Assembly (NCBI GenBank): GCA_958295675.1
Contig: OY282360.1
Coordinates: 1 to 50,132, forward strand
Direction: 5' to 3'
Source of the DNA: Minisyncoccota bacterium
GTDB lineage: Bacteria > Patescibacteriota > Minisyncoccia > Phycocordibacterales > JABAAK01
Length of the DNA: 50,132 nucleotides
Part shown: in pieces, positions 2,729 through 45,408 of the stretch
How the letters are laid out: each line of letters opens with the position of its first letter
Numbering within the stretch: the stretch's first letter is position 1
The notes under the pieces: generated by a model
Told to the model about the DNA's origin: nothing
Seen by the model: the letters and a program-made list of their open reading frames with translations, nothing else
Databases searched by the model: none
Program-made: the position numbers and the translations under genes

Positions 2729-3313
2729 TTACAAATCTAACAACACTTGACTTTTTCTCAAATCTGGAGAAACCCATTTTTTTTCTTTCAAGTGTGTTAA
2801 GCAAACAACAGCCCCGAACTCGGAAAATTTTTTGTAGAACTCAGATTCTTTATCACCCCAGTACACAATTGCACAAGCCATGGGTGCTCCCTTGTCATTA
2901 TCGCCGTTTGTGAATTTGAGCCTGGTGTCGGACAAGAAACACACGCTGTTTGCTTTCCCAAAAATATACTCTTTCCAATGTCTTGTATTCACTGCGACAG
3001 GTATGAGGGCGAGAATTTCACTATTGTTTTTTTCATTTGTATCGCAACACCTCCTAATCCAATCCTTGATTGATGTATTGCTTCCCCTACTGATTCCGTA
3101 AGGCGGATTAACATAGATGGTTTTAAAATCCCAAGTATCAAGTAAACCATTATGTTGGGGAAGAGTATATTCAACCCTCGCATGTACAATAGAGTGTTCG
3201 TTTGAACAGGGATCTAGGTCTATTTTGCCAAAAAAATTTCTTACAGCATTGACATACTTTGGTGGTGTACACCAATCTTTCTTATCTGTAATTATGTTTC
3301 TACCTGCAGTCAT
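2729..3313 (-). CDS. Phage-type Dam-family DNA N6-adenine methyltransferase
   Basis: 194 aa with WCTPP, DLDPCS and the catalytic NPPYG motif, in the order typical of the small phage Dam family. The gene starts 4 nt downstream of the preceding ORF. The segment is AT-rich. Confidence 0.8.
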   Translation of the reverse strand: MTAGRNIITDKKDWCTPPKYVNAVRNFFGKIDLDPCSNEHSIVHARVEYTLPQHNGLLDTWDFKTIYVNPPYGISRGSNTSIKDWIRRCCDTNEKNNSEILALIPVAVNTRHWKEYIFGKANSVCFLSDTRLKFTNGDNDKGAPMACAIVYWGDKESEFYKKFSEFGAVVCLTHLKEKKWVSPDLRKSQVLLDL

Positions 3314-3317
3314 ATTG

Positions 3318-4463
3318 TTACCAATTCTTTTTTGAGAGAATGGTGATTTGTTTTCTTAATCTTTTAACTGTCAAGTCCTTTGGAGATATCACATATAGCC
3401 ATTTTTCAATCTTGTTTCTATTTTCTCTGAAGTATTCTTGCAATAGAAAATCTGCTTTCTGATTCATTTGCACTTTCGTGAACTGATTCTGTCTCTTTTT
3501 ACCACCTTTTCCGATATCATAACTGTCCAAGAAAGCTTTTTGAACAGGTTTATACTTTTTAAGAGGATTCAGAAGAAGTTCATCAATGAACATTGCCAAT
3601 CCTCCATCGGTTAAAAATACCAGCCAGTCATATGAACAACTCAAAACCAATAATTCTTTATTTGGATTATCAGAGGTAAACCAGTTGCCGTGATTACTTA
3701 CCACACCGATGGTAAGAATAATATTTTCATACATCTTCCTATCATCACTGTCAATAACCTCCTTTAACAACTTTTTAAACTCCTTGAAAATAAATTTACC
3801 ATTTACAGGTAACGCACCGCACAAAACACCATTCTCATTTCTTATTTTTTGCAATGATGATACTGATTTAGCAACATATGCCCCCTGCTTTGCTTTTTCA
3901 ATTGTTTGCGGACCTTTTTTCATTCCTTCTTCTACACCGACTCTTTTGCACTCTAACATTGCGAATGGTTTCTCCATTTGTTCTATAATTTCAATCACCA
4001 CCTCTTTTTGATTGTCCTTCTTTATAAAAGCAACAAGGACCCTATCTTGATTTTTTGCAAGAACACAAGCATTTTTAACCACTTCTTGAGTTGTTAAAAG
4101 TGATGAGTTTTTTACTTCATATTTTTCCCAAGCATTCTTTTTAATAAGACCGTCTTTTTCTAATGCTGCAAAAATCTTCTTTGTTGTAATCGGCAGTTTC
4201 TTTTCAATTGAAATCTGAACCTTCTTACAAACAGGGTGTATACTATATTCAACATTGTGAGAAATTTTATCGTTAGAATATTCTGCAAGATGTTTTTCAA
4301 TCCTCATACTGCTTTCAAAACCCCAATCTTTTATCAAATAAAATGTGATTATCTCAACCAAAGTTCCCAGAGCTCTTCCAGATGCTTTTTTTGCATCTTT
4401 TGTGTAATGAAAGATATGTTCAGCAAGTGTCTTTTGCAATTTATCTACGGATGGATATGACAT
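3318..4463 (-). CDS. Putative type II restriction endonuclease (PD-(D/E)xK-like), partner of the Dam-type methyltransferase
   Basis: 381-aa ORF immediately upstream of, and co-oriented with, the methyltransferase. It has a candidate E-x-K motif (AMLECKRVG). I recognise no other family signature, so the call rests mainly on context. Confidence 0.5.
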   Translation of the reverse strand: MSYPSVDKLQKTLAEHIFHYTKDAKKASGRALGTLVEIITFYLIKDWGFESSMRIEKHLAEYSNDKISHNVEYSIHPVCKKVQISIEKKLPITTKKIFAALEKDGLIKKNAWEKYEVKNSSLLTTQEVVKNACVLAKNQDRVLVAFIKKDNQKEVVIEIIEQMEKPFAMLECKRVGVEEGMKKGPQTIEKAKQGAYVAKSVSSLQKIRNENGVLCGALPVNGKFIFKEFKKLLKEVIDSDDRKMYENIILTIGVVSNHGNWFTSDNPNKELLVLSCSYDWLVFLTDGGLAMFIDELLLNPLKKYKPVQKAFLDSYDIGKGGKKRQNQFTKVQMNQKADFLLQEYFRENRNKIEKWLYVISPKDLTVKRLRKQITILSKKNW

Positions 4464-4648
4464 AGTAATTTCTTCTGAATTTTTACCTTACATTCATAAA
4501 GTATCAAGTCCTTTATGTACTTTTAGTATACCATTTTAGTAAAATGTTAAATTGATTATTAATCTTGTTCTCTTCTTCTAGAAAGATTTTTCTTCTTTTT
4601 AGATATTTTTACTTTTTTAATGAGTTATTAAAAGTATATAATACATGC

Positions 4649-5254
4649 ATGATACCAGATTTTCCAAAAGTAAAAGAGAAATTAAAATCTTCACTTAACA
4701 TTTTAATGAAACAAGAAATGGTGAAAAAATCACCACTGCTTTCTTTGATGGCTCTCAGACAGGTTTATGAAGGTGATAAAATGGGTATTTTGCGTGAAGA
4801 TGGGAAACATGAAGTGAATCATTTCAATGAGGTTTCATCTGAGGCGTCAATTTCTGCTGAACAGATGCAGGGATTATCTTCTGGAGATATGCAAAATATT
4901 TTCTCCGATATATCTACTAATATGGCATCTCAGGTTGAGAAAGGTATAATGCAATCAATTGAAAAAGGTGCTGCTGATGGTGGAAATGAAATAGCCATAC
5001 CGAAAATTGATCAAAATCTTATACTTGAAAGCATGAAGAGTATAAAAATTTATTTTCATAATGATGATAGAAACAAGCCATCAGAACAGGCAATTATTAC
5101 AGAATATCCGGCTGTTTTTGAGATATTAAAAAAGATTAAAGGAAAACAGACGCAAGAAGAAAAAGAAGAGTTTGAAAGAAGAAGAGAGGAAATTCTTGAT
5201 GAAAAATACAAAGAACATATGTCAGATCTTGAATCAAGAAAAATGGTTGATTAA
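4649..5254 (+). CDS. Hypothetical protein (201 aa) with a charged, coiled-coil-like C-terminus
   Basis: ORF 4565..5254. The first ATG in frame is at 4649 (MIPDFPKVKEK...). It is divergent from the RM pair, and its stop lies 4 nt before the next ATG. No motif recognised. Confidence 0.55.
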   Translation: MIPDFPKVKEKLKSSLNILMKQEMVKKSPLLSLMALRQVYEGDKMGILREDGKHEVNHFNEVSSEASISAEQMQGLSSGDMQNIFSDISTNMASQVEKGIMQSIEKGAADGGNEIAIPKIDQNLILESMKSIKIYFHNDDRNKPSEQAIITEYPAVFEILKKIKGKQTQEEKEEFERRREEILDEKYKEHMSDLESRKMVD

Positions 5255-5258
5255 TTAC

Positions 5259-7019
5259 ATGACTGAAAATGCTACAAAAATCAACAAATTTAAATTGTTT
5301 TGTGAACGGATTTTCAGAAAATTGTTCCACGCAAAAGGTGGCAACACCATTACGATCGGTGCTAGTGTTGACAAGATAATCACTTCTCCGCACAACGATC
5401 CCTTTTTACAAAGAGTTATTGAGCACTGGTTAGATTCAGTAAATGAACTTGGTTATCAAGTCTTGTTTTGTGAATGGCTTTTATTTCAAGGATATGCTGT
5501 CAAGTATGAAATAAGGAATCCTAACTTTGAACAAGGAAAAGATGTTGTTGCAGTTGATTCTGCAGGAATACCTCACGCATATCAACTAAAAGGTGGAAAT
5601 ATAAGCTTGCATCGTTGGCGCACAGAAGTTAAACCAGAAATTGAAGTATTGATTGGAGCCCCCATTATTCATCCTGGTGTAGATAGTTCTAAAGGTCATG
5701 TGTCATATTTGGTAACAAATGGAAATATAGATGACAGTGTAAGAGTGGAGATAGACAGTTTAAATCGTGGAATATGGAAAGAGAAACCGCTTAAGATTTT
5801 TTTGAGAGGGGATTTACTGCAAGGATTTCAAAAAATTGCCACTGAAGTTTTGCCTCAAGACGCACAGGCATATAGAACCCTCACCAACCTAATTTTTGTA
5901 GACGGCACTAGTTTTGTTGACCTAAAAGAAATATATCCCTTTCTATGTCAAATACTTCATATCAATGATCAAAAAAGGTCGATGGAACAAAGGAAAAGGG
6001 ATATATCTGCTGCAATTTTATACACAACTATGATTATTGGACCATATAGAGAGAAAGATAACTATGTCTCTATGATTAGGGTTATGGTTCTATTGCTGTC
6101 ATTAATTCTTTACCTGACTGATAGATATAATCTTCAAGAAAAATATTGGTTAAAGTCATATAATCTTGTGTGGGGTGATATTTTAGATACGGCAAAAAAA
6201 CTAGAGTCCGAAGTGGAAAGTAAGGGATTTACTGCACCTCTTATTGATCCTTTTGATAAAATTGATTTACCATTTTGCCCCGGTGTAAATTTAATGCTAT
6301 TCCGCAAACATGTCACCGCATCAATGATCTTTTCGTTTAAAATGTCTCAAATTATTAGTGGTGATTTTGATGTAGAAGATGTTTTGCAAAATGCGGTGTT
6401 TGATAAATATAAAAACATTTCACTCACATGGGGTGAGGCGAGTTTTTTGCCAGTCATGTTCCTTGCGTTGATGTGTGTATCTACTGAAAAAAATAAAGAA
6501 AATGGGATTACTTTAATGGAGTTTATCGTTAATGAAATATTAAAACATAATGGCAGAAACGCGGAAAATTCTATAGGTTTATTACCTCCATTTTTTGATT
6601 TAAATTTTCTGGCCGATAAAATTTCTGGTAATTTGGAAGAGCCGCTTGACCATCAAGGTAAACATCATTCATATTATATAAAACCAGTTCTAGAAATAAT
6701 GACGCGATTAGATCAGAAAGATTTTATATCTAAACAATGGAGAGAAATATCATTCATGTTTTTTGAAGAATTTATATTTGATCAAAAATTTGATTATTAC
6801 TTAATGCGTTCAAAAAAAGGGGAAAATAGAACAATCGTTCCAAAAAAAGAAAAAAGTTGGAAAGAGTTAGTCGGTGAATCAAATTCTTTTAATGGTAGCA
6901 CTCTGCCAGATTCAATAAAAAGATTTCCTGAATTTATACCTTTTTTCCTTTGTGTATTTCCTCATAGATTAAACTCCGATGTGCTTGGCTTTCTTTTTCA
7001 AAAATTGCAGGAAAAATAA
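5259..7019 (+). CDS. Hypothetical 586-aa protein: N-terminal Mrr-like PD-(D/E)xK nuclease signature plus a large helical C-terminal region
   Basis: ORF 5172..7019. I chose the ATG at 5259 (MTENATK...), just after the upstream stop. The N-terminus reads FCEWLLFQGYAV...GKDVVAVDSAGIPHAYQLKGG...SYLVTNGNIDDSVRVEI, which matches the E / D / (Q)xK / TT-S pattern of Mrr-type restriction folds. Confidence 0.65.
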   Translation: MTENATKINKFKLFCERIFRKLFHAKGGNTITIGASVDKIITSPHNDPFLQRVIEHWLDSVNELGYQVLFCEWLLFQGYAVKYEIRNPNFEQGKDVVAVDSAGIPHAYQLKGGNISLHRWRTEVKPEIEVLIGAPIIHPGVDSSKGHVSYLVTNGNIDDSVRVEIDSLNRGIWKEKPLKIFLRGDLLQGFQKIATEVLPQDAQAYRTLTNLIFVDGTSFVDLKEIYPFLCQILHINDQKRSMEQRKRDISAAILYTTMIIGPYREKDNYVSMIRVMVLLLSLILYLTDRYNLQEKYWLKSYNLVWGDILDTAKKLESEVESKGFTAPLIDPFDKIDLPFCPGVNLMLFRKHVTASMIFSFKMSQIISGDFDVEDVLQNAVFDKYKNISLTWGEASFLPVMFLALMCVSTEKNKENGITLMEFIVNEILKHNGRNAENSIGLLPPFFDLNFLADKISGNLEEPLDHQGKHHSYYIKPVLEIMTRLDQKDFISKQWREISFMFFEEFIFDQKFDYYLMRSKKGENRTIVPKKEKSWKELVGESNSFNGSTLPDSIKRFPEFIPFFLCVFPHRLNSDVLGFLFQKLQEK

Positions 7020-15472: not shown

Positions 15473-15545
15473 GGTGCCTATGGTGTAATGGTTAGCACTC
15501 AGGTTTGTGGAACCTGCAGAAAGGGTTCGAATCCCTTTAGGCACC
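15473..15545 (+). tRNA. tRNA-His (anticodon GTG) with encoded G-1
   Basis: Hand fold: G-1 plus acceptor GTGCCTA/TAGGCAC, anticodon stem CAGGT/ACCTG, loop TTGTGGA, T-arm AAGGG-TTCGAAT-CCCTT, discriminator C. Confidence 0.85.
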
Positions 15546-15693
15546 CAATAAAGTTTTCATGGATGGATTTCCTACATATTTGCTACAGTAACTTAGGTTT
15601 CTCTGGCGGTCCTGTCATATGTGAATATAAAGAGATAACAGATCTCTACGACCAACTTCCGCTTACCTACCTTGCAAAACCGGCGCACCCTCT

Positions 15694-16932
15694 TTACTGC
15701 CGCCACTCAAATCGCTCTCGTAAAATATCCTTGTTATGGCTTACCATAATGGAAGATAAATCCTCATTATACATTACCGAAAGATTATTAGTTGCTTCAA
15801 TTGGATTTGAATTTGAGTATATATCCTCAAATTTTACAATCCCGCTATCAACATGCAACACGATGTGGTAATCTTTAATATTTTTGTGTACACTCCGCTC
15901 CATGTATATTAAATTTTTGTAATTGTCTATCAGGATAAATTCCTCTTTGTTCCTCACAAATTTTATAGGAACCACATGATGCAAATCAAAACCATCGCGC
16001 TTGATTACTTTATGATTGGAAAAGTACTCCTGTTTAACACTGAGTCTTCGTTGTTGTCTTGATATTTCAGGAAAGATGCCAAACTTACCTCTGTTTAGCG
16101 CAAAGTTTTTCTCACGAACATCAAAATAAATTGTATTCTTCAATAACTGCATTATCTGTTGAGTTTCATTTCTCCAGTTATGAAAATCTCTCTTTACTGT
16201 TTTACTGCCGTCAAAATTGTCTGGATTGCAATAGTCTTTTAGCATTCTATGAACATTTTTCTTCTGGAGTTCATTGAGATCCCGATACGAACTAAGTAAA
16301 TATATTTTTTCTTCGGCAGTCTTCCGCGTATCGGACAAGATATATTGAAACTCTGTGTACGATATTGAGTCATTACTATACGTACTATGATATATCATCT
16401 CTGCAAGATCAGAAATTGCATCACCAAACAATGTATCTATCTTTCTTGAAAATATATAATATTGACCAACGATTGTTTCTTCTTGTATTAATGCAATCGC
16501 ATCTTCAGTTAATTTTACAAAGTGAACATGAGAACGATTATTTGGATCCAACATTTTTTTATCCTTACCAAACCGGTCTATGAAACCCGCTCGACTGAAG
16601 TCAACAAAGAAATTTTTCTTAAGAGAATTCTCTGTAGTCCTTCCAATTTCACTATTGATTTTCTCAACAACAACAGCAAATTCTGGATGCGTGCCCTCCG
16701 CGCTTTCTCTGATTACATCAGTTGATATATCGCCCAACGGAACAGGTAAAAAATCATCCTGAACAACATCGTACACATTCTTCAAAATCGCTATAACAAT
16801 ATCCATATCATATCTGTTGTGTTGAGAGATTTGTATACCCCGATAATCATCCCGCTGAACCCTTTCAACAATGTATTGCAAGAACTCATTACAGGGTTCT
16901 ATATTCAAAATTTTTTCCAACATCTCTTCCAT
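15694..16932 (-). CDS. Putative restriction endonuclease with a C-terminal HNH-type motif
   Basis: 412 aa, last gene of a three-gene co-oriented cluster with two methyltransferases. The C-terminal region DLHHVVPIKFVRNKEEFILIDNYKNLIYMERSVHKNI fits an H-N-(N)-H nuclease pattern. The segment is AT-rich. Confidence 0.6.
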   Translation of the reverse strand: MEEMLEKILNIEPCNEFLQYIVERVQRDDYRGIQISQHNRYDMDIVIAILKNVYDVVQDDFLPVPLGDISTDVIRESAEGTHPEFAVVVEKINSEIGRTTENSLKKNFFVDFSRAGFIDRFGKDKKMLDPNNRSHVHFVKLTEDAIALIQEETIVGQYYIFSRKIDTLFGDAISDLAEMIYHSTYSNDSISYTEFQYILSDTRKTAEEKIYLLSSYRDLNELQKKNVHRMLKDYCNPDNFDGSKTVKRDFHNWRNETQQIMQLLKNTIYFDVREKNFALNRGKFGIFPEISRQQRRLSVKQEYFSNHKVIKRDGFDLHHVVPIKFVRNKEEFILIDNYKNLIYMERSVHKNIKDYHIVLHVDSGIVKFEDIYSNSNPIEATNNLSVMYNEDLSSIMVSHNKDILRERFEWRQ

Positions 16933-16938
16933 ACATCT

Positions 16939-17784
16939 TTACCCCCTCTTTTTATCAGCAATAAAAAGTGCTTTCTGCATGCTTGGTGATTTAACAACCA
17001 TTTTCCTATTTATACCATGCAAACTATCATTTGCCAAACTAACAAATTCTTCACTACTATCAGCACACAAAAAATTCCTACCTAACACTTTAGAAACCAG
17101 TGCCGTTGTGCCGCTACCAACAAAACAATCGAATACAACATCCCCTTCGTTGCTGCTTGCTCTGATTATCCTCTCCAGCATCTCGGTTGGTTTCGGTGTT
17201 GCATGACTCATTTTCTGAACTTTACCATTTACCTTATTCTTATGCCGTTCACTCGTAATATGCCACACATCCCCACACAACTTGCCGTTCGGATTCGGAA
17301 ACCACCGCTTACCGTTCTTCACAATACCTTTTTTCGCCGCATGCGCAATTCTATCCTTTGATTCATATGCGACACGCACATCGTCAGCATTAAAAACATT
17401 TGGAGACCCTTTTGAAAAAAACAACACTGTCTCCTGATTCGGAATAAATCTGTTTTTCGTATGTGAAAAACCATCTCGCTTATCCCAAGTAATCCAATTC
17501 TGAAACAGCAAATATTCTTTTTGAATCAAGAAATTGAAAATCTTAGCGCAATTATACGGCGTGTTGAAAATATACAAACTGCTACCTCTTTTTAATTTCG
17601 GTAACAGTGCATCTATCCACAAAAAGGTAAATTCAAAAAATGCTTGTTCGCTTGAAAAAGTATCCCAATCGCCTTTATTCAAGAAATATGGAGGATCCAA
17701 AACAGCCAAATCAACACATTCATCCTCAGTTGCTTTCATGAAATCAAAGCAATCAGACACGATAATTTTATTTAAATTTCTCAT
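16939..17784 (-). CDS. DNA methyltransferase, N6A/N4C beta-class (DPPY)
   Basis: Catalytic VLDPPYF near the N-terminus and an AdoMet motif FDCFVGSGTT near the C-terminus, the order of the N6_N4 MTase family. Confidence 0.85.
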   Translation of the reverse strand: MRNLNKIIVSDCFDFMKATEDECVDLAVLDPPYFLNKGDWDTFSSEQAFFEFTFLWIDALLPKLKRGSSLYIFNTPYNCAKIFNFLIQKEYLLFQNWITWDKRDGFSHTKNRFIPNQETVLFFSKGSPNVFNADDVRVAYESKDRIAHAAKKGIVKNGKRWFPNPNGKLCGDVWHITSERHKNKVNGKVQKMSHATPKPTEMLERIIRASSNEGDVVFDCFVGSGTTALVSKVLGRNFLCADSSEEFVSLANDSLHGINRKMVVKSPSMQKALFIADKKRG

Positions 17785-18637
17785 GTTTCCTTGCCTCTTC
17801 TAATTTTTTATTTATAATTTTCGCATAACTTTTCACAACTTCATATCCGATATAGTTTCTACCCCACTCCTTCGCAACCTTAAGCGTGGTGCCAGAGCCG
17901 GCAAACGGATCCAAAACCGTTTCGCCAACAAAGGTAAATAATCGCACGCACCGCTCCACTATTTCCTCAGGCATGAGGGCACAATGGCTTCCGAATGCCA
18001 AATCCTTTTTGTTTGGTACTGGTATATCCCACACTTGTTTTGTGAAGCGCACCCAATCTTTCTGAGTTAACTTACTTTTCTTTTTTATTTCTTCCGGCAA
18101 ATCATTGACGGGTTTACCATCCTTCACAAAAACACTGACAAATTCGGTAGTGTTTTGCGCGTAGAAATTCCTCGGATATGGATAACTGCCGAACATTAAA
18201 CTCTTCCTCGGATTTGTCCTATTCCAAATATACAGGTCATACAAATGCATGTGGCGGATTTTTTTCACTATTGAATTTTCAATGTCGGAAGAGATATTAA
18301 AAATATGCCGGGTATAGTGCTCGCTGTAGTCCTTTTTCGGAACCGGCATTAGTGGTGTATTAATGACAAGTTTTCCATTCGGAGTAAGTACCCGATAACA
18401 TTCTCTCCACACTGACAACACCTCCTTGATGTATGCATCATAACTTTTAATATCACCAATCTGTGCTTTCGCTTTGGTGTGTACCTGTTTTTTTTGGTGT
18501 CCGTCTAAAGCGTAGTTTTTCACATTATAGTACGGTGGACTGGTGACAATGAGGTGCACACTATTGGACGGTACCTCCGCCATACTCTTCGCATCTTTAT
18601 AAAAAACGGTATTGAGAAAATCTATTTTTTTGCGCAT
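17768..18637 (-). CDS. DNA methyltransferase, N4C/N6A beta-class (SPPY)
   Basis: Catalytic TSPPYYN and C-terminal LDPFAGSGTT. It overlaps the next methyltransferase by 17 nt. Confidence 0.85.
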   Translation of the reverse strand: MRKKIDFLNTVFYKDAKSMAEVPSNSVHLIVTSPPYYNVKNYALDGHQKKQVHTKAKAQIGDIKSYDAYIKEVLSVWRECYRVLTPNGKLVINTPLMPVPKKDYSEHYTRHIFNISSDIENSIVKKIRHMHLYDLYIWNRTNPRKSLMFGSYPYPRNFYAQNTTEFVSVFVKDGKPVNDLPEEIKKKSKLTQKDWVRFTKQVWDIPVPNKKDLAFGSHCALMPEEIVERCVRLFTFVGETVLDPFAGSGTTLKVAKEWGRNYIGYEVVKSYAKIINKKLEEARKHEKFK

Positions 18638-19110
18638 ATTTCATACTTACTTCTTATCTACTATTGTTCCATACTTTTTTCCCATCACAGAACATATCAA
18701 GATTAGGTTCAAATAACAGTATATATTTACTACCATTAGTCAAATTTACCTTTCACGGAGGCTCGCAGTTATTATTTTTCCTTATGATGGGTGTTGAGGT
18801 TGAAGAAATCAAGAATACTGTGGGTATTGATGACGAATATTTTGCACAATTTCAATGAATAAGTCATATATCTTTTATTTTTGGCATTTTCAAGGCAGAA
18901 ATTAAGATATATTGTGGACAATAATAAAATATAAATGTATAATAAATACACATGAAAAACAACAGCCAAAACAAATTTTATTCTGAATGTGTAGAAGAGA
19001 GGTACTCAGAGACAACAGGGACAATTGAAGAGAATCCTCCGTATGAATTTTTTTCAGGAATCCCGTTAGAAAAAGAGGATTACATTTACACAGATACAAA
19101 CCGATCAATA

Positions 19111-19725
19111 TTACCCACGGACATAGGCACTAACATTAACACATAGCGAATCACCTATCTCTGGAACCTTTATATCTTTAATAATATTCTTATCCTTCGC
19201 AAAAGATAAATCTTTGGACGAACCTTGTCTAAAAAGTTCTTTTATTTCATCTTCTGTAATATTAGTATTACTTGCAATAATACCTGCTATTTTTTCTTCG
19301 TCTTTTTCTATCCTGCTTTCCATCTCCCTAACATTACTTAAATCAAGTGCTTGGTCAGCGAAAATACGACATTTTGTACCATGGAAAAGAAAGGTGGAGT
19401 GAGGACATGCAAACCTTTCATTTCCGGCAAGAAAAATAACGGTTGCAACAGAATCAATATTTCCCATATTATAAACAATGATTTTTGTAGATAAAGATTT
19501 TAAAAAATTATAAAAGGTTATCCCTGCGGAAACATCACCACCTGGAGAAGAAAAAAGAAAGGAAATCGAAGAAGGGTTTTGACCACTAATCTGTAAAAAT
19601 GTGTTCATAAGATTTTGAACATTAGGGAGACTTATATCTCCAAAAAAACTTATAAAAACATTGTTCCCAGATACCTGTCTCTGCGGTAACGCTTGTACAT
19701 CCTGAACTTGCTGATTTGGCTCCAT
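19111..19725 (-). CDS. ClpP/SppA-fold serine protease-like protein (orphan)
   Basis: ORF 19111..19764. I chose the ATG at 19725, which avoids overlap with the nrdA stop. SSPGGDVSAG aligns to the ClpP INSPGG motif, NMGNIDSVATVIFLAG places a Ser where the ClpP nucleophile sits, and STFLFHG places a His at the ClpP catalytic His. The segment is AT-rich. Confidence 0.65.
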   Translation of the reverse strand: MEPNQQVQDVQALPQRQVSGNNVFISFFGDISLPNVQNLMNTFLQISGQNPSSISFLFSSPGGDVSAGITFYNFLKSLSTKIIVYNMGNIDSVATVIFLAGNERFACPHSTFLFHGTKCRIFADQALDLSNVREMESRIEKDEEKIAGIIASNTNITEDEIKELFRQGSSKDLSFAKDKNIIKDIKVPEIGDSLCVNVSAYVRG

Positions 19726-19738
19726 GTTCCTAATTACC

Positions 19739-22123
19739 TTAACTCCCACACGCAATGCAGACATTCGGATCGTCGTCGTCGTTTACCTGTTGTGCGGGAA
19801 CCGGCACCTCTTCTTTTTGAGGCACCACCTCCGAATCGGGTTCAACAAACTTTGTCTTATCAACAGAAAATTGCACCGCCTCTACCGCCGGTGTGTTGCG
19901 CAGGTAGTACATACCAGCTTTGAGACCCCGCTTCCACGCATGAAAGTGAAGTGCGGTTACCTTGCCCGCCGTTGCGCCGCGCATGTGAATATTCATGCTC
20001 ATGCTCTGACAGATGTACGGACCGCGATCCGCCGCCATATCAACAATGGAACGCTGTGGTATTTCCCAGACGGTGCGGTAGCGCATACGAATATCCTCCG
20101 GAATCTCTTTGATGTTCTGCACCGAACCGCGGGCGGCGACAAGTTTGAGCCGAAGTTCCTCGCTCCACACGCCGACTTCCTGAAGATCGCGCAGAAGGTG
20201 TTTGTTAATTAAAATAAATTCACCGGAAAGAACCCGTCGGACATAGAGGTTGGAGGTAAACGGTTCTATGGACTCATTATTACCGAATATCTGCGCGGTG
20301 GTCGCTGTCGGCATGGGTGCCATGAAGAGTGAATTGCGCAGACCGTGCTGCACCATGTCAGCACGCAGCTTTTCCCAATCCCACAGTCCGGAATCAGGCA
20401 CAACACCCCATAGGTCAAACTGGAACTTCCCTTCAGACGCGGGCGAACCGGCGAAGGTCTCGTAGACACCTTCCTTTTTGGCGATCTCAATAGATGCCTC
20501 AATCGCGCCGTGATAAATGGTCTCGAAAATGTTCTTATTCAATTCCCTTGCACGCGGCTCGTCAAAATTAAATTTCATCATTGCAAATGTGTCCGCGAGT
20601 CCCTGAATGCCGATACCCATCGGACGATGGCGCATATTGGAAGTCCTTGTTTCATTCAGTGCGTAATGGTTGCGATCAATCACCTTGTTGAGGTTTCGGC
20701 AGATGATTTTCGCGACATCATGCAGACGCTTAAAGTCATAGGAATTATCTTCTTTTACAAAACGGTTCACACAGATGGACGCGAGGTTGCAGATTGCGGT
20801 CTCCTTATCATCGGAATACTCAATAATCTCAGTGCAGAGATTGCTGCTGCGAATCGTGCCGAGGTTTTTTTGATTTGATTTGCGGTTCGCGGTATCTTTG
20901 TACAGCATGTACGGTGTCCCTGTCTCAATCTGCGCGTCAATAATGTGAAACCACAGGTCACGCGCTTTGACAGTTCTTCTGCCCCGTCCTTCACTCTCAT
21001 ACTGACGGTACAGCTCTTCAAATTCCTTGCCGTGCACCTTAAACAATCCCGGGCATTCTTTAGGACACATCAATGTCCATTCTTCATCCGCCTCAACGCG
21101 GCGCATGAATTCATCGGGAATCCATAGTCCCAAAAAGAGATCGCGGGTGCGCCGTTCCGGTGCGCCGTGATTTTTCTTAAGGTCCAGAAAATCAAACACG
21201 TCGGCGTGCCACGGCTCAAGGTAAATAGCGAACGCTCCTTTGCGCTTACCGCCCTGATCCACATATCGCGCGGTCTCGTTAAAGGTACGCAGCATCGGAA
21301 CGAGCCCGTTTGATGTTCCCCGTGATTTGGTGATAAAACTCCCTTTCGCGCGAATATTATGCACACTGATGGAGAGACCTCCGCCTGACTGTGATACCAG
21401 TGCCGCATCCGTCATTGTTTTGAATATGCCGCGTATACTGTCCGCGGACATCGAAAGCAGAAAACATGAGCTCATTTGCGGAATGGGTGTTCCTGCGTTA
21501 AAGAGTGTCGGTGTTGCGTGTGTGAAATCCTTCTGGGATGTGTGGTGATAGGTTTCAAAAGCGGCGTCCAGATTATTGCCATGTATGCCGAGCGCGACCC
21601 GCATGAACATATGCTGCGGGCGTTCCACTGCCCGTCCATTCATCTGCATCAGGTACTTTTGCTTTTCCAATGTCTTGAATCCAAAAAAGTCAAAAGATTC
21701 ATAATCCCTATCATGATCTATCTCCGCATCTATTCGTTCTCCGTGTTTGGTCACGATATCAAGCAGTTCATCTGACACGAATGGTGCGTGTTGCCCTGTC
21801 TTCGGCTCCACATACGCGTGCAGCATTTTGATTGTCTTAGTAAATGACGGATCTGTGTCTTTATGCAGATTAGAGATGGCTATACGCGCCGCAAGTTTTA
21901 AGAAGTCAGAGTGTGTGGTTGCCATAGAGGCGCATACGCGCGCGGCAAGGTCATCAAGTTCAGTTGTTTTTATATTATCCTGCAGTCCGTCAACAACCCG
22001 CTGAGTAATTTCGGCAGGGTCAATAAACTTGGTGTCTAACCCTTCGGTAAGATTGGTGAGACGCTCAAGGATAGCGTCAAAGCGAACCTCCTCGCGCCGA
22101 CCATCCCGTTTGATGACATACAT
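19739..22123 (-). CDS. nrdA: Ribonucleotide-diphosphate reductase alpha subunit (class I, with ATP-cone)
   Basis: N-terminal ATP-cone (VIKRDGRREEVRFDAILERL), an active-site SNLCTEI loop and a C-terminal CIACGS redox tail. Confidence 0.95.
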   Translation of the reverse strand: MYVIKRDGRREEVRFDAILERLTNLTEGLDTKFIDPAEITQRVVDGLQDNIKTTELDDLAARVCASMATTHSDFLKLAARIAISNLHKDTDPSFTKTIKMLHAYVEPKTGQHAPFVSDELLDIVTKHGERIDAEIDHDRDYESFDFFGFKTLEKQKYLMQMNGRAVERPQHMFMRVALGIHGNNLDAAFETYHHTSQKDFTHATPTLFNAGTPIPQMSSCFLLSMSADSIRGIFKTMTDAALVSQSGGGLSISVHNIRAKGSFITKSRGTSNGLVPMLRTFNETARYVDQGGKRKGAFAIYLEPWHADVFDFLDLKKNHGAPERRTRDLFLGLWIPDEFMRRVEADEEWTLMCPKECPGLFKVHGKEFEELYRQYESEGRGRRTVKARDLWFHIIDAQIETGTPYMLYKDTANRKSNQKNLGTIRSSNLCTEIIEYSDDKETAICNLASICVNRFVKEDNSYDFKRLHDVAKIICRNLNKVIDRNHYALNETRTSNMRHRPMGIGIQGLADTFAMMKFNFDEPRARELNKNIFETIYHGAIEASIEIAKKEGVYETFAGSPASEGKFQFDLWGVVPDSGLWDWEKLRADMVQHGLRNSLFMAPMPTATTAQIFGNNESIEPFTSNLYVRRVLSGEFILINKHLLRDLQEVGVWSEELRLKLVAARGSVQNIKEIPEDIRMRYRTVWEIPQRSIVDMAADRGPYICQSMSMNIHMRGATAGKVTALHFHAWKRGLKAGMYYLRNTPAVEAVQFSVDKTKFVEPDSEVVPQKEEVPVPAQQVNDDDDPNVCIACGS

Positions 22124-39858: not shown

Positions 39859-40048
39859 AAGCACCGACCCTGCTGATTTGTCGGATTTTTTCAAAGAGAT
39901 TGGCTTGAACCGCACTCTTACAGGTCACACCGTCCGTTTCACCCCGCGTAGCGCATGGAAAGCCCTCTACGGTGCGGCAGCATGCCGCACCGCACACAAC
40001 AGCCACACGACCGATAGGGAGTGTGTCGTAGGTTGTACTGGAAAGTCC
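39859..40048 (-). repeat. IR-A2: right, inverted copy of the 190-bp repeat, 46 bp upstream of the recombinase start codon
   Basis: It is the reverse complement of 38331..38520. ORF 39878..40099(+) repeats the last ~55 aa of the recombinase (DFFKEIGLNRTLTGHTVRFTPRSAWKALYGAAACRTAHNSHTTDRECVVGCTGKS). Confidence 0.9.
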
Positions 40049-40219
40049 TCTCACCAGATTGCGTTGGAACTAAGGCTATACCTGAAATCCGGCAATTAAG
40101 TCGCTCCGCTTACTTTGGGGACTTGCTGCGCAAGACCCCTCCGTGCGCTCCGCTCCCGCGCCAATCACCGCCGGCATTTTCTTTTTCAAATTCCTCCGCC
40201 GCCCAACCCCGCGTGCTCG
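40044..40219 (+). repeat. IR-B1: left copy of an imperfect ~175-bp inverted repeat flanking the RM+SIR2 cassette
   Basis: It aligns by hand with the reverse complement of 43761..43935. The first 30 nt are identical (AGTCCTCTCACCAGATTGCGTTGGAACTAA), followed by scattered substitutions and then loss of similarity after CGTGCTCG. It is GC-richer than the cargo. Confidence 0.75.
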
Positions 40220-40540
40220 CCGCCGTCTGTTTCTGTTCTTTTTGCTTGAAAAGGTGGGGGTTTGGGGTTTCTCATTTAACCCAGTAGCACGCGAACCAAC
40301 AGCAAAAGAAAATTTTGGTGTTGGCGAGGAGGAGGAACCAACAGTAATCCGCCCGTGAATCTCCCGACAGGGTTTTCACGGGCGGATTTCCCTTTAATGA
40401 CAATTTTACCTATATTTTACTTGCTAAAAACAGACTTGATCAAATTCTCCTTAGATACTAAAATATGGATGTAGTACTTGATTAGAGTGTGGATAGCTCG
40501 CTCTTGATCAAATAAGGTGTATGAATTAAAATATAAATAT

Positions 40541-41335
40541 ATGGCTTCTTCAAGTATGAAAAAAAACAGAGTCCATAACGGCGATATTATGGATCTATTG
40601 AAAGAATTACCAGCTAACAGCGTAGATATGGTTTTTGGTGACCCTGATTATAATGTTGGCATAAACTATGACGGAAAAAGGTATACAAAAAATTTTGAAG
40701 AATACGTTGAATGGTACATAAACCTAACAAATGAATGTATGCGAGTATTAAAAAAACAAGGAAATGCTTTTATGATAAATTATCCAAAACAAAACGCACA
40801 CCTACGCGTGAAATATTTGGATATTCATTACCCATTAACCACAGAATATGTATGGGTATATAACACAAATGTGGGACACACACCAAAACGATTCACGACG
40901 GCACACAGAAGCATATTACACATACGCCCTTCAAAAGATAATAAGTTTTTTAAGACCCAAGTTGCTCAACCATATAAAAATCCAACAGATCGGAGAATAA
41001 AAAATAACATAAAAAATGGATCAAAAGGACGAATGCCTTACTCATGGTTTGAATTTAATCTGGTAAAGAATGTCAGCAAAGAAAAAACGCTCCACGCATG
41101 TCAAATACCACAAGATCTATCGGAGCTCCTGATAAAATCATGTACCAAAAAAAATGATACTGTGTTGATATTGTTCGCTGGAAGTGGTGCGGAATTGGAG
41201 GTTTGTAAAAATCTTGAAAGAAATTTTCTCTCGGCTGAAATGCATAAAAAATATTACAAAATGATACAAGAACGATTAAAGAACGGATCAGTGCCCAACA
41301 AATACAAACTAAAAAATGGAAAAAGATGTTACTAA
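40541..41335 (+). CDS. DNA methyltransferase, N6A/N4C beta-class (variant DPDY catalytic motif)
   Basis: ORF 40517..41335 (GTG). I chose the first ATG, at 40541. It has the VFGDPDYNVG catalytic motif and a C-terminal AdoMet motif ILFAGSGAELE. It is convergent with the next gene and overlaps it by 4 nt. Confidence 0.8.
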   Translation: MASSSMKKNRVHNGDIMDLLKELPANSVDMVFGDPDYNVGINYDGKRYTKNFEEYVEWYINLTNECMRVLKKQGNAFMINYPKQNAHLRVKYLDIHYPLTTEYVWVYNTNVGHTPKRFTTAHRSILHIRPSKDNKFFKTQVAQPYKNPTDRRIKNNIKNGSKGRMPYSWFEFNLVKNVSKEKTLHACQIPQDLSELLIKSCTKKNDTVLILFAGSGAELEVCKNLERNFLSAEMHKKYYKMIQERLKNGSVPNKYKLKNGKRCY

Positions 41336-42150
41336 TTTCTCACAATCCTATATTCCGCATTCTTTATTAAAGACAGAGAGGACATATCGTACGGCTCAGT
41401 AAAGGTGTATTTATAAAGACGGATGATTGATCCTGTGCTGGTTTGTCTGCGCAACAAATAGCAAGCATTCAAATCAGATATTGCCAATCCCTCTTTTTTA
41501 TGCTTTGTATAATACAGAAAGGGTAAATATATTTGAGAAACAGCAAAATCTTTTGGAAAACCATTTTTTGCCTCAAAAACAGTCACTATACCATTCTCCT
41601 CTGCTGTCATATCTATCTCGATCTGTTGATTATTGAGAGAAACCCTCTCACCCCCTATGTAATATGTTGCGGTCAAATTCGTCCTATGTGAGTTATATAT
41701 CTTTGGCGTCGCAGCAACTTCGCTATACAAAAAATCATGCATTATCCTTTGGTTATAGGCGACCGACAGTATATTTGATTCACTTGTATTCAATTCATTA
41801 AGAATGCTTGCTCTATAATTTCTTTCTATCACATTTTGTATATCCTCAAACACATGATAGCCATACTTCACACCCTTCACAAATTTATGTCTCCCCTTTC
41901 CAAGGTGAACAACAAAGTAATCATTATTTCGCAATACCGGAGGGAGTTTTTCTGTATTATCTATATGAAACACATCAAATGGATTTTGAAACCCCGTTTT
42001 CCTGCAAACACTCTTGACTAGTTCATTATCAAAAACTAAATCACTTGTAAACTGTGCGCTGTCGCCGCCACTTCCTTCTTGTACTTTACCACCACAACAA
42101 CGCGAAAAAATCTCTTCTTGTGTTTGTTGTTTTTTGCTTGGTTGGGGCAT
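41332..42150 (-). CDS. Putative type II restriction endonuclease (PD-(D/E)xK)
   Basis: 272 aa, tail-to-tail with the methyltransferase. It has a candidate D...E-x-K motif (IEIDMTAEENGIVTVFEAKNG). The call rests on context plus this motif. Confidence 0.5.
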   Translation of the reverse strand: MPQPSKKQQTQEEIFSRCCGGKVQEGSGGDSAQFTSDLVFDNELVKSVCRKTGFQNPFDVFHIDNTEKLPPVLRNNDYFVVHLGKGRHKFVKGVKYGYHVFEDIQNVIERNYRASILNELNTSESNILSVAYNQRIMHDFLYSEVAATPKIYNSHRTNLTATYYIGGERVSLNNQQIEIDMTAEENGIVTVFEAKNGFPKDFAVSQIYLPFLYYTKHKKEGLAISDLNACYLLRRQTSTGSIIRLYKYTFTEPYDMSSLSLIKNAEYRIVRN

Positions 42151-42240
42151 AATTATATTCTACAACAAAAATGCGGTTGGTGTTATTGGGACAATTGCTT
42201 CTATATATACAAAACAAAAAGAGGTGGTAATATAACTTAT

Positions 42241-43314
42241 ATGCATGTCGTTATTGTTGGAGCCGGAGCAAGTATTGCTTGTTATGAGGACATAAGAGAT
42301 AAGAGTGACTTGCCACAACTGCCGTCAATGGACAACTTTATTGATGTGGTGGGTTTAGCAAGTGTGTTTGAAAAATATGGACAGCAAGTGCCGAATGAAA
42401 ACATAGAGGTGGTGTACTCACGACTACAGAAAGAAGGTAATAACGCCCTTATCAAAGATTTGGAAGATGAAATTTTTAAGTACTTCTGTTCAATGCGATT
42501 ACCTGACAACGAAGTGACGGTATATGATAAATTAATATGCTCATTGGACCCAGGATGTGGTGATATGATATTTAGTTTTAACTGGGATCCTTTGTTAATA
42601 CAAGCGCTGATACGCAACCAAAAAACACTAAATGATCGTGCGCCTCGGATAAGATTTTTGCACGGCAATGTCGGGTTTTGTTATTGTGATAACTGCGATC
42701 CGATGAATAGAATGCAGAACATAGAGAACAAGCCGGTTGAGAGTCTTAGATGTCCGACCTGTGGAAACATGGTTAAAACACAAAAATTACTATATCCTGT
42801 GGAGAATAAAGACTACGCAGAAACCGATTTATTGAAGATTGATTGGAAAGAATTTGATGAATCGTTGCGTCGAGCAAATATAGTGACAATCTTCGGATAT
42901 AGTTGCCCTAAAACAGATGCTGAAGCAAGGAGACGATTGGAAGAGGCATTCAAAGAAAGAAATAATGGTCCAGCTAAGCCCGATTTATATTTCATTAATA
43001 CAACAGAAGAAAAACAATTGAAGGAGAATTGGGATAATCTAATATTTGCGAATGCTGAAGGTGAATATACAGATTTTTTTAAAAAAATGGATGAACATCC
43101 AATATCACACTGGCCACATATGTTCAGTATTTTCTGGGTGTGTGGTTATTTGCTTTCCAATCCATATAGTGGACAAGGTATCTTGAAAGATAGTAAAATT
43201 ATTGCAATGAGAAAGAGATACGAAAAAACAAAATCGCTTCAAGATTACCAGGCGTATATCAGCCACATCATTGAACTGGACACACCACACAGAGAACAGT
43301 TTAAAAAGCGGTAG
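42241..43314 (+). CDS. SIR2-like (sirtuin-fold) protein with a Cys4 zinc ribbon
   Basis: ORF 42079..43314. I chose the ATG at 42241, which is preceded by GAGGTGG. It has a Rossmann start VVIVGAGASIA, FSFNWDPLL (equivalent to the TxNYD motif), a catalytic-His context RFLHGNV, CDNCDP...CPTCG, and IFGYS. Confidence 0.75.
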   Translation: MHVVIVGAGASIACYEDIRDKSDLPQLPSMDNFIDVVGLASVFEKYGQQVPNENIEVVYSRLQKEGNNALIKDLEDEIFKYFCSMRLPDNEVTVYDKLICSLDPGCGDMIFSFNWDPLLIQALIRNQKTLNDRAPRIRFLHGNVGFCYCDNCDPMNRMQNIENKPVESLRCPTCGNMVKTQKLLYPVENKDYAETDLLKIDWKEFDESLRRANIVTIFGYSCPKTDAEARRRLEEAFKERNNGPAKPDLYFINTTEEKQLKENWDNLIFANAEGEYTDFFKKMDEHPISHWPHMFSIFWVCGYLLSNPYSGQGILKDSKIIAMRKRYEKTKSLQDYQAYISHIIELDTPHREQFKKR

Positions 43315-43760
43315 ACAGGCACATTTCTCCAAAATCAAAATATCTAAAATATCAAATTTTATACACGCAATACACAAAATCTTTTTCCTCATACCCAGAA
43401 ACACCGAAAATGCCAACCCGATACACATGAAATGTCAACGGAGAACACAGCATTTCCGACTCCAGACTTTTGCGAAGCAAAAGGATGGAGTGGGAAAAAC
43501 GGAACAAAGCGTTCCGCACCTCGCGGAAGAGTGAAAAAATGGCGAAGTGTTTGTGTATACAACTGCTTCGCTGTTTTTGAACAAGCGAGGTGCGGATCTG
43601 CGGAGTGGAGTGGTGCGTTTCTTATATACCAAGCCCTTCCGCCGTCTCATTTTCTTTTACCACTTCCCTCGTGCACGGAGCGGTGTTCCCCAACCAGACA
43701 AACACCCCATCGCCGCACATCACTCTACTGGTACTTCCCATCACCTCTACTGCACCGCGA

Positions 43761-43935
43761 CGAGCACGCAGGGATGGTGCGCGAATTGAAAGGAAAAAGA
43801 AAATGTTCGGCGGTTGGGCGAGGGAGCGGAGCGAACGTAGGGGTCTTGCGCAGCAAGTCCCTGGAGTAAGCGGAGCGACTTAATCACCGGATTTCAGGTA
43901 TCGCATTAGTTCCAACGCAATCTGGTGAGAGGACT
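43761..43935 (-). repeat. IR-B2: right, inverted copy of the imperfect ~175-bp repeat
   Basis: Its reverse complement aligns to 40044..40219. It ends with ...AATCTGGTGAGAGGACT, which resembles the 3' end of tRNA-Lys (AATCCTGGTGGGCGGACT). Confidence 0.75.
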
Positions 43936-43968
43936 GAACTAGTGTGAAGTTGATGTTGTATCTCATTA

Positions 43969-45123
43969 CTAATTAGTAAAAATCTCTATATATCTCCTAT
44001 ACTCATACATCTGTGACCGACTCTTCTTTTTTCTGGGACTGAGAATATTCAATGCGACCATTCTGTTAATCGCAGTTTGAACTTTGACCCTGCTAAGACC
44101 TGTCTCCTTTTGAAGATCCGAGTTTGTTGTAATAGGAACCCGATAAAGATAATTCAATATTTTGAGCACATTCTCCGAAGATCGTTTATCAATCTGTACA
44201 ATTTTTTCTCTATCAACATCTCTCAAATCAGAAAGTTGTTCTATGGTCTTAATTGAATCATCTGCTATTTCTATAACCGCATCAAGAAAAAAATCAACCC
44301 AGGCATCAACTTCCCCCTTTGAATAGTGAAACAGCCGCTCATAATAGACATCTCTATATTTTCTGAAATAATGGGAAAGATACAGCAATGGTTTTTCCAT
44401 AATCTTTTTTTCTGCAAAGAATAGTGTTACAAGCATTCTTCCTGTCCGACCGTTCCCGTCAAGAAATGGATGTATGGTCTCAAATTGCGCATGAACAAGT
44501 GCCGCCTGTATAACAGGAGAAAGTAAAAGATTTTTTGAGTGGATGAATTTCTCCAAATCACCAATTGTTTTTGATACCTCAGTGTGTGGCGGAGGAATAA
44601 AGCGTGCGTCTGATATATTTCTCCCTCCTATCCAATTTTGAGAGGTTCGAAACTCGCCGGGTGTGTTGCTTGGATTGCTCGTTCTCGCCCCGGACATCAG
44701 GGTAAAATGCATCAATTTTATTAGTCGCTCACTAATAGGTAATTTTTTTAATTCGTTGAGCCCTGAATTAAGTCCGCGTATGTAATACAATATATCTTCA
44801 ACATCATCCGGAAGGTATGATGATGATCGTACATTTGATTCCAACACATCTTCAAATTCTGCATTTGTCCCCTCTATTTTACTGGAAGCGGTCGCATCCT
44901 TATTGAGATACATAAAGATAAAAAAATCAACATCAGGAATATGGTGCGCAATTCCATTCAAATGACTCATTTTTGCTCGTGCCTCTTCACTTTTCATGAG
45001 AATGCGCATATCAAACTGCAACATATCCTTTGAAGGAAATTTTTCCGGAATAAAAGATGCGTATCCTTTTGGTTGTTTTATAAAGCGACCCACTAATTTT
45101 CTTGATTTCTTTGTCTGTTCCAT
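43969..45123 (-). CDS. Fic-family protein (AMPylase-type) with an N-terminal inhibitory helix and a C-terminal wHTH-like domain
   Basis: ORF 43969..45159, with the internal ATG at 45123 chosen (MEQTKKSRK...). It has the Fic motif HPFLDGNGRTGR and an inhibitory (S/T)xxxE(G/N) motif in SSKIEGT upstream of the core. Confidence 0.9.
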   Translation of the reverse strand: MEQTKKSRKLVGRFIKQPKGYASFIPEKFPSKDMLQFDMRILMKSEEARAKMSHLNGIAHHIPDVDFFIFMYLNKDATASSKIEGTNAEFEDVLESNVRSSSYLPDDVEDILYYIRGLNSGLNELKKLPISERLIKLMHFTLMSGARTSNPSNTPGEFRTSQNWIGGRNISDARFIPPPHTEVSKTIGDLEKFIHSKNLLLSPVIQAALVHAQFETIHPFLDGNGRTGRMLVTLFFAEKKIMEKPLLYLSHYFRKYRDVYYERLFHYSKGEVDAWVDFFLDAVIEIADDSIKTIEQLSDLRDVDREKIVQIDKRSSENVLKILNYLYRVPITTNSDLQKETGLSRVKVQTAINRMVALNILSPRKKKSRSQMYEYRRYIEIFTN

Positions 45124-45336
45124 ATGTATAAATATAGCATATTTTTCTACATATAACAATGTATATGTGTAAAAATATACAATTTTTACACATTAAATAA
45201 AGCAAGTGTGTAAATTTTTTCAAAACCATAGAAATACGCTTATTTTTCAAGAGATTTTAGTTCTCATAAAATATACATTGCACTGAAAGCACATTCTTGC
45301 CGATCCTATTTGAAACTAAAGTAAAATAAGGAGTAT

Positions 45337-45348
45337 TTTCCAGTACAA
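45337..45348 (+). repeat. Candidate attR core: direct copy of the 12-bp sequence found next to tRNA-Lys
   Basis: TTTCCAGTACAA occurs at 38335..38346 (just after tRNA-Lys), at 45337..45348 in direct orientation, and at 40033..40044 in inverted orientation inside IR-A2. Confidence 0.55.
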
Positions 45349-45408
45349 GACAAAACACGCTTGCTATCGCCCCGCCTTTCAAAAAATAAAATACTATGAC
45401 CGAGTTCT

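Follow-up and report, generated by a model that had tools for sequence, protein, structure and literature searches.

The 50,132 nt stretch analysed here, called the window, is part of contig OY282360.1 of a Minisyncoccota bacterium and carries, between gyrB and rnhB, a cassette of two plus-strand genes at 4649-7019. The first encodes a small protein of 201 amino acids (aa) and the second, after a gap of 4 nt, a large protein of 586 aa, in which an N-terminal PD-(D/E)xK nuclease domain is followed by an all-alpha domain (Table 1). The open reading frames (ORFs), their coordinates, and the gap are exactly those of the initial annotation, which was made from the sequence alone, and the peptide strings quoted there are all present. 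When 4649-7019 was shuffled 200 times, the longest stretch without a stop had a mean of 84 codons and a maximum of 138, against the 586 and 201 observed, and homologues of the large protein reach E = 2e-194, with 163 word-index matches. Because the shuffles give far shorter runs and the large protein has such strong homologues, the two ORFs are genuine and not chance products. The start at 4649 is backed by the N-terminus M(L/I)PDFP, which is common to the whole small-protein family.

Table 1. Features of the two-gene cassette and its immediate surroundings in the window (AF2, AlphaFold2; pLDDT, predicted local distance difference test; RM, restriction-modification)
Feature	Position	Strand	Details
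Small partner gene	4649..5254	+	201 aa; ATG 4649, TAA 5252-5254
Large gene	5259..7019	+	586 aa; ATG 5259, stop 7017-7019; N-terminal PD-(D/E)xK nuclease domain, then C-terminal all-alpha domain
N-terminal extension of large protein, 44 residues	5259..5390	+	Helix 2-24, then disordered stretch 26-41; pLDDT 43-76
PD-(D/E)xK (Mrr/MspJI-like) nuclease core	5400..5801	+	Residues ~48-181
Putative catalytic codons	E63 5445-5447; D95 5541-5543; Q109 5583-5585; K111 5589-5591	+	Invariant columns
C-terminal ~390-residue near-all-helical domain	5856..7016	+	Residues ~200-586; from alignment and AF2 model
Separated motifs	5228-5254 and ~5418-5432	+	Small-protein tail and large-protein ENWL
Intergenic region (presumed divergent promoter region)	4464..4648		185 nt, 21% GC (0.211); between divergent 381-aa ORF and small gene
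Dam-type N6-adenine DNA methyltransferase (context, outside cassette)	2729..3313	-	PF05869, E = 1.4e-16
Orphan 381-aa ORF (context, outside cassette)	3318..4463	-	4 nt upstream of methyltransferase gene; at the position of the restriction enzyme of an RM pair

The AlphaFold2 model of the large protein, run on an alignment of 118 sequences, has a pLDDT of 90.8 and a predicted template modelling score of 0.90. In this model the nuclease core has the topology alpha-beta-beta-beta-alpha-beta (helix 63-76, strands 80-84, 96-99, and 105-111, helix 117-133, strand 148-153), with E63 on the first helix, D95 at the start of the second strand, and Q109-x-K111 in the third. All four of these residues are invariant in the alignment, as are E91, K94, N154, N169, P199, N268, E393, and W494. 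The D...QxK configuration is that of Mrr and MspJI. An Mrr-like nuclease N-terminus with the layout E / D / QxK / TT-S had been proposed for this protein, and its motif residues were expected to be conserved among homologues; the domain and the first three motifs stand, while the fourth is instead T153-N154-G155 (LVTNG).

The top Foldseek match of the model in the PDB is MspJI (prob 1.0, E = 3.7e-3), and the next is NucS/EndoMS (2vld, 5gke; prob ~1, root mean square deviation (rmsd) 4.4-5.0 over ~120 residues, E 0.18-0.34), with LmuA, EcoT38I, EcoO109I, XPF/Mus81, and Can2 among the further matches. All of the top matches belong to the same nuclease superfamily, and in a viral library the best matches by fold are "restriction endonuclease" and Mrr-domain proteins (prob 1.0). 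As modelled, with this core fold and these invariant active-site residues, the large protein is a member of the PD-(D/E)xK superfamily.

At the level of sequence or profile there is no match to the large protein in Pfam, NCBIfam, PADLOC 2.0, PHROGs, or the PDB. Mrr_cat (PF04471) is not matched by the window protein at E <= 1, nor by any of 31 diverse members of the family at E <= 0.1, and an hhalign comparison of the family with a single Mrr_cat protein gave no significant score; scanned singly against the profile library, the 31 members gave scattered noise only. The kinship to Mrr is therefore at the fold and superfamily level only. A distant sister protein from Rhodococcus, which is above the Mrr_cat threshold, bridges the large family to Mrr.

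Most homologues begin at about residue 45 of the window protein, and an extension similar to its N-terminal 44 residues, an amphipathic helix and then a disordered linker, is seen only in a subset of them (P0049, P0051, P0055). There is also an insertion of ~9 residues near residues 333-341 (~6255-6285), where model confidence is low.

The remainder of the large protein had been described as helical and free of recognised motifs, and indeed nearly all of its ~390 residues are in helices, and neither fold nor profile searches gave it a convincing match. Within the full-length fold search the region gave only alpha-solenoid matches (prob <= 0.1) in addition to LmuA (prob 0.47, template modelling score (TM) 0.15-0.20). 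It has conserved residues of its own, N268, E393 (in a WGE motif), and W494 being invariant and R247, E318, R349, N431, Y445, S471, R483, and R570 near-invariant. These polar, aromatic, and arginine residues point to a functional site in the C-terminal domain, as opposed to a passive scaffold, and the domain is probably a regulatory or recognition module, acting in oligomerisation, ligand binding, or nucleic-acid binding.

The small protein is acidic (isoelectric point 5.3; family median 5.55) and mostly helical. Its family shares, besides the N-terminal M(L/I)PDFP, the motifs (H/Y)EGD and GN, a buried F, and the tail (R/K)ESxRKLVD (also SRK(M/L)VD). The initial annotation found no recognisable motif in it and this is borne out, with no match in Pfam, NCBIfam, PADLOC 2.0, PHROGs, or the PDB, either alone or across 34 members, which gave scattered noise only. 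The AlphaFold2 model is weak (pLDDT 68.8), and a fold search with it found no match. As a speculation, the weak model may mean that the small protein folds only on its partner.

That the two genes would occur together in other genomes had been anticipated, and a homologue of the small gene immediately precedes the large gene, on its strand, in 54 out of 54 locus records tested with a hidden Markov model (HMM), the window included. Because four of the records duplicate places already counted, the distinct loci number ~50; the other loci carrying the cassette are referred to here by L-numbers. The gene tables of three further loci have the same small-then-large arrangement, and the linkage holds whether the large or the small protein is used as the query. 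A scan of one genome per species (185,579 species) contributed 42 of the loci, a lower bound because the search was pattern-based, while the rest are metagenome contigs, one IMG/VR contig, and one plasmid.

Overlap of the two genes is seen in 40 of the 54 records, the large one beginning 35-55 nt within the small one and in the +1 frame each time (for example L002:7986-8035, L048:7995-8047, L052:7566-7606, and L053:7554-7597, with 36 further loci). The dual-coding stretch (..AGAAAACTGGTTGACTAA) encodes both the NRKLVD* tail of the small protein and the ENWL motif of the large one. In the clade that includes the window (Patescibacteria, Bacteroidota, Myxococcota, Thermodesulfobacteriota), the genes are a few nt apart and both motifs are kept, so that this clade has resolved the overlap into separate genes. 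Since both motifs persist where there is no overlap, each is under selection at the protein level. The conserved +1 overlap raised the possibility of a programmed frameshift fusing the two proteins; with a separate in-frame start codon present in each overlap examined, no such event is needed and the idea was dropped.

Pairwise identities of the small and large proteins are correlated (r = 0.89), a value that none of 999 permutations reached. In every case the genes are co-linear and either adjacent or overlapping, and the proteins co-evolve, which indicates that the pair is inherited and expressed as one unit. When 629 neighbouring ORFs were clustered, no family was found in more than 4 loci, and this absence of a recurrent third gene family rules out a three-gene system. 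In the acidobacterial locus L054 a gene for a 620-aa GHKL/MORC-like ATPase (HATPase_c, HATPase_c_3; L054:4586-6448) ends 4 nt into the small gene, and this arrangement may be a three-gene variant.

An exhaustive HMM search gave at least 1,468 representatives of the large family at 50% clustering (E <= 1e-3), 694 of them at E <= 1e-30. The top 150 representatives are mostly ~490-570 aa and are matched over nearly the whole profile, with some shorter fragments and one of 708 aa; the architecture is therefore nearly fixed. The distribution is patchy, over more than 12 bacterial phyla and 3 archaeal lineages (Methanolobus, Bathyarchaeia, and Nitrososphaerota). The bacterial carriers include Patescibacteria, Bacteroidota, Myxococcota, Thermodesulfobacteriota, many Acidobacteriota, Chloroflexota, Actinomycetota, Alpha- and Gammaproteobacteria, Latescibacterota, and Eisenbacteria. 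Split or truncated copies are seen in L033, L034, L038, L043, and L044, as expected for dispensable genes, or possibly through assembly errors; in L034 and L038 it is the large gene that is broken and the small gene that is intact.

No match was found in 50,697 phage records, and one IMG/VR contig carries the cassette. This contig, L050 (IMGVR_UViG_3300050335_000119), is the only "viral" carrier and contains a superfamily 1 helicase, a Qat-like KAP/QueC/TatD operon, the cassette, and a GmrSD-like gene. From its gene content it looks like a stacked defence island and not a phage structural region; a satellite, an accessory region of a prophage, and a misclassified contig are all possible identities.

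In the window the cassette is part of an island between gyrB and rnhB that had been taken for an AT-rich foreign insertion. The GC content of 2729-7019 is 33%, against ~50% in the flanks: 0.32 for the small gene, 0.33 for the large gene and for the 381-aa ORF, and 0.385 for the methyltransferase, compared with 0.50 for gyrB, 0.50 for rnhB, and 0.51 for dnaE, and Pfam confirms the identity of the flanks (GyrB domains, RNase_HII, DNA_pol3_alpha). This base composition is consistent with foreign insertion, as proposed. No flanking direct repeats, tRNA, or integrase were detected at the edges of the island. The intergenic region 5' of the small gene is presumed from its position to be a divergent promoter region; a consensus promoter scan found no site in it above background, and a terminator scan was similarly uninformative.

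The genomic position of the cassette is never conserved between loci. Its neighbours were tallied in the 15 loci for which gene-by-gene Pfam tables were available, counting defence genes within ~5 kb, and known defence genes are present within this distance in 8 of them. These are a Dam-type methyltransferase in the window; type I RM genes and a RES-domain protein in L002; HinfI, a methyltransferase, and Fic in L046; Mrr_cat, a D12 methyltransferase, HNH, and a resolvase in L047; an EcoRI methylase and GmrSD/HNH in L049, the closest relative; a KAP NTPase, an uncharacterised gene, a QueC-like gene, TatD, and a GmrSD-like gene in L050; an OLD-type endonuclease and a helicase in L051, on a mobilisable plasmid; and an Eco57I-like methyltransferase, OLD-TOPRIM, TatD, and a relaxase in L053. 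The order of genes in L050 is that of Qat. Five more of the 15 loci have integrase or recombinase fragments, phage-type lysins, a HigBA-like toxin-antitoxin (TA) pair, or HNH and XRE genes nearby. The pooled Pfam matches of 370 neighbouring ORFs include RM components, resolvases, integrases, TIR, HD, pPIWI_RE, and DUF559. In this uncontrolled tally of 15 loci, the context of the cassette is suggestive of a link to defence.

Certain genes recur beside the cassette in unrelated loci. DUF4238 proteins are encoded at L053:13806-14597 and L056:8655-9671, OLD-family (TOPRIM) ATP-dependent nucleases at L051:1-325 and L053:4934-6904, and TatD DNases at L050:6686-7408 and L053:9933-10691. All three gene types may likewise belong to these defence islands.

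Taken together, the pair would be a self-contained, horizontally mobile two-component nuclease module, and the context makes defence against phages or other invading DNA its most likely role, by somewhat more than an even chance. The proposal in the initial annotation of a defence or abortive-infection module outside the named systems is to this extent supported, with the function read from genomic surroundings. The large protein would be a Mg2+-dependent DNA endonuclease. The small acidic protein would be made in step with it by coupled translation and would then bind it, either keeping the nuclease off until there is an infection cue or supplying target recognition; once activated, the nuclease would cut the invading DNA or, in abortive infection, that of the cell itself. 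A broader proposal, to which rather less than an even chance is given, is that this is an immune module spanning Patescibacteria to Bathyarchaeia and methanogens, in which control of an Mrr-like nuclease might fall to a helical domain with a pocket of invariant polar and arginine residues and to an obligate small partner, with a sensing principle unlike that of any characterised system.

Several observations weigh against a defensive role. Two of the 15 annotated loci, L045 (Myxococcota) and L048 (Acidobacteriota), have neither defence nor mobile genes nearby, and the pooled Pfam matches of the 370 neighbouring ORFs also include many housekeeping genes. The neighbourhood sample is small, biased to long contigs, and lacks a matched background control. 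The poor model of the small protein gives no structural support for it as a regulator or inhibitor, while the role given to the C-terminal domain is pure inference and a role as "sensor" conjecture.

Two of the alternatives overlap with the defence model. The first is that the pair is a two-subunit Type IV, modification-dependent enzyme, in which the nuclease cuts foreign-modified DNA and the helical domain, the small protein, or both read the modified base. The best fold match, to MspJI, the matches to viral Mrr-domain proteins, and the active site of the Mrr and MspJI kind speak for it, as does the frequent proximity of the cassette to DNA methyltransferases and RM systems, a common seat of Type IV enzymes. 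In metagenomic selections many unrecognised nucleases have been found to defend in a modification-dependent manner (PMC12366544). Among 31 members scanned against Pfam, and in the fold search, however, no SRA, EVE/ASCH/YTH, DUF4268, or winged-helix reader was found, nor is there a McrBC-type NTPase partner or a GmrS-like domain, and the known single-chain Type IV enzymes need no obligatory 200-aa partner. This explanation is considered unlikely.

The second is that the cassette is a TA-like addiction module, with the large nuclease as toxin and the small acidic protein as antitoxin, which stabilises the island or plasmid and has no dedicated anti-phage role. The small gene comes first and the nuclease second, with translation coupled or overlapping, and the cassette is carried on a mobilisable plasmid and in islands bearing integrases or recombinases, all of which would suit such a module. 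So would the order of decay in L034 and L038, where the gene that would encode the toxin is the broken one, but these frameshifts are from long-read metagenome-assembled genomes and may be assembly errors. Type II antitoxins typically have a DNA-binding domain, whereas library scans of the small protein found neither this nor a known antitoxin domain, and, at 200 aa with 540 aa, the pair exceeds the usual size of TA systems. TA and defence roles may also coexist; as an explanation in its own right, addiction is judged distinctly improbable.

The remaining two fit the distribution and context poorly. A housekeeping or accessory nuclease of DNA repair or recombination, NucS/EndoMS-like or resolvase-like and with an accessory subunit, would be in keeping with the fold matches to the nuclease cores of NucS/EndoMS, XPF, and Mus81, but these span only the generic core of ~120 residues at Foldseek E >= 0.18, and the rarity of the cassette (42 loci among the 185,579 species genomes, as a lower bound from the pattern-based search), its unconserved position, its foreign GC content, and its decayed copies make such a role very improbable. 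That the large protein is the restriction subunit for an adjacent methyltransferase, and thus part of a neighbouring RM system, is scarcely credible, since although a methyltransferase is within 2 kb in the window, L046, L047, L049, L002, and L053, these belong to unrelated families (Dam, N6_N4, D12, EcoRI-type, HsdM, Eco57I-like), several already have an endonuclease of their own (HinfI, HsdR, GmrSD/HNH), the gene tables of L045, L048, L052, L054, L055, and L056 contain no DNA methyltransferase, though some methyltransferase domains are present among the pooled neighbours, and no methyltransferase family co-clusters with the cassette.

In the case of the window, the two genes divergent from the cassette had themselves been called an RM pair. 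The methyltransferase half of this claim holds, as 2729-3313(-) matches, in addition to PF05869, the PADLOC orphan methyltransferase (E = 5.7e-19) and PHROG 111 (E = 1.1e-29). The endonuclease half did not find support, with no match for the 381-aa ORF in Pfam, NCBIfam, PADLOC, PHROGs, the PDB, or plasmids, so that this label comes from its position alone. There is a possible ...D...ECK motif (MLECKRVG) in this ORF, and if it is truly the cognate restriction enzyme it would represent an undescribed family.

Elsewhere in the window, a second low-GC island (GC ~0.37, 15474-19800) begins directly after tRNA-His (15474-15546). It contains a 412-aa ORF with an HNH-like "DLHHVVP" motif (15694-16932, minus strand) and adjoining DNA methyltransferase-like ORFs with DPPY and SPPY motifs (16939-17784 and 17768-18637, minus strand), and by eye is probably a type II RM system with two methylases. 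A third low-GC stretch (0.365-0.41) is present at 40000-46000.

The initial annotation could not assign the cassette to a named system, and the comparisons place neither protein in one or in a non-defence family, the profile libraries and PDB searches being empty and the fold search giving only generic nucleases. In PADLOC-DB 2.0.0 no family is matched at E <= 1 by either protein, neither is named in libraries dated 2023 to 2026, and literature searches found no description. Mrr and MspJI share with the large protein the alpha-beta-beta-beta-alpha-beta core and the E...D...QxK layout. The cassette nuclease differs from them in having no SRA, winged-helix, EVE, or DUF4268 domain (Pfam and fold search), in being N-terminal to a ~390-residue helical domain that is absent from Mrr and MspJI, and in its obligatory 200-aa partner. 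The cores of NucS/EndoMS and the large protein superpose, but this core is all that they have in common; the N-terminal dimerisation and DNA-binding domain of NucS is absent from the cassette protein, and the cassette is mobile and patchily distributed and not a housekeeping gene.

Lamassu is similar in arrangement, with an N-terminal PD-(D/E)xK nuclease (Cap4/Mrr-type) and then a helical region in LmuA, which is in an operon with a small (~200 aa) partner, LmuC. The fold match to LmuA is the fourth-ranked in the PDB (9hr5_C, 418 aligned columns) and is weak, at the scores given above and an rmsd of 25.7. The cassette has no conserved SMC-like third gene (LmuB) and matches no PADLOC Lamassu model, and together with the weak fold match this places it outside Lamassu.

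Another counterpart is the sister cassette on Rhodococcus qingshengii plasmid pdjl-6-4, made up of a 195-aa hypothetical protein (WP_054801557.1) and a 511-aa "restriction endonuclease" (WP_064075238.1), a name given by automatic annotation only. It shares the two-gene layout, here with a 35 nt overlap, and has genes for helicases and for an OLD-type endonuclease beside it. By hhalign, homology extends along the whole small protein (prob 97.9%, E = 5e-13) and is also seen in the nuclease domain (prob 99%, E = 4.5e-18); the large protein passes Pfam Mrr_cat at 22.8 bits against a cut-off of 21. The ~350 C-terminal residues, however, cannot be aligned to the family profile, and are either very divergent or a different domain.

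Defence repertoires known from genome-reduced Patescibacteria and archaea are thin (PMC12988326; PMC12366544), and the cassette, if it is a defence system, would be among the few candidate immune modules in these organisms. It would also add a family that is widespread (1,468 or more clusters at 50% identity) and is wholly missed by Pfam, NCBIfam, PADLOC 2.0, and PHROGs. Any new trigger or recognition mechanism would lie in the conserved small partner and the large helical domain, and the nuclease could serve as a reagent, if it proves specific for a modification or a structure. The hypothesis is directly testable, since the carriers include several that are in culture, such as Salinarimonas rosea DSM 21201, Actinospica acidithermotolerans, and Methanolobus zinderi, as well as one plasmid, Rhodococcus pdjl-6-4.

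In the literature the closest analogues are MdgA and MdgB, previously unrecognised modification-dependent nucleases from soil phyla (Acidobacteriota, Actinomycetota) that were recovered by metagenomic selection; they protect E. coli, which demonstrates that a nuclease of this sort can act in defence without having been annotated (PMC12366544). These are single-gene systems that carry DUF4268, while the cassette proteins match no Pfam family, and they are set apart from it by their description; DdgA is described as confined to Patescibacteria and as having no structural homology to known proteins (PMC12366544). Identity with the Dallas, San Juan, or Mdg defences is set aside on these published descriptions and not by sequence comparison (PMC12366544). 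Set beside the known systems, the cassette would be a nuclease-effector defence module whose partner protein and helical domain are both uncharacterised, and it is a credible candidate for a new anti-phage system.

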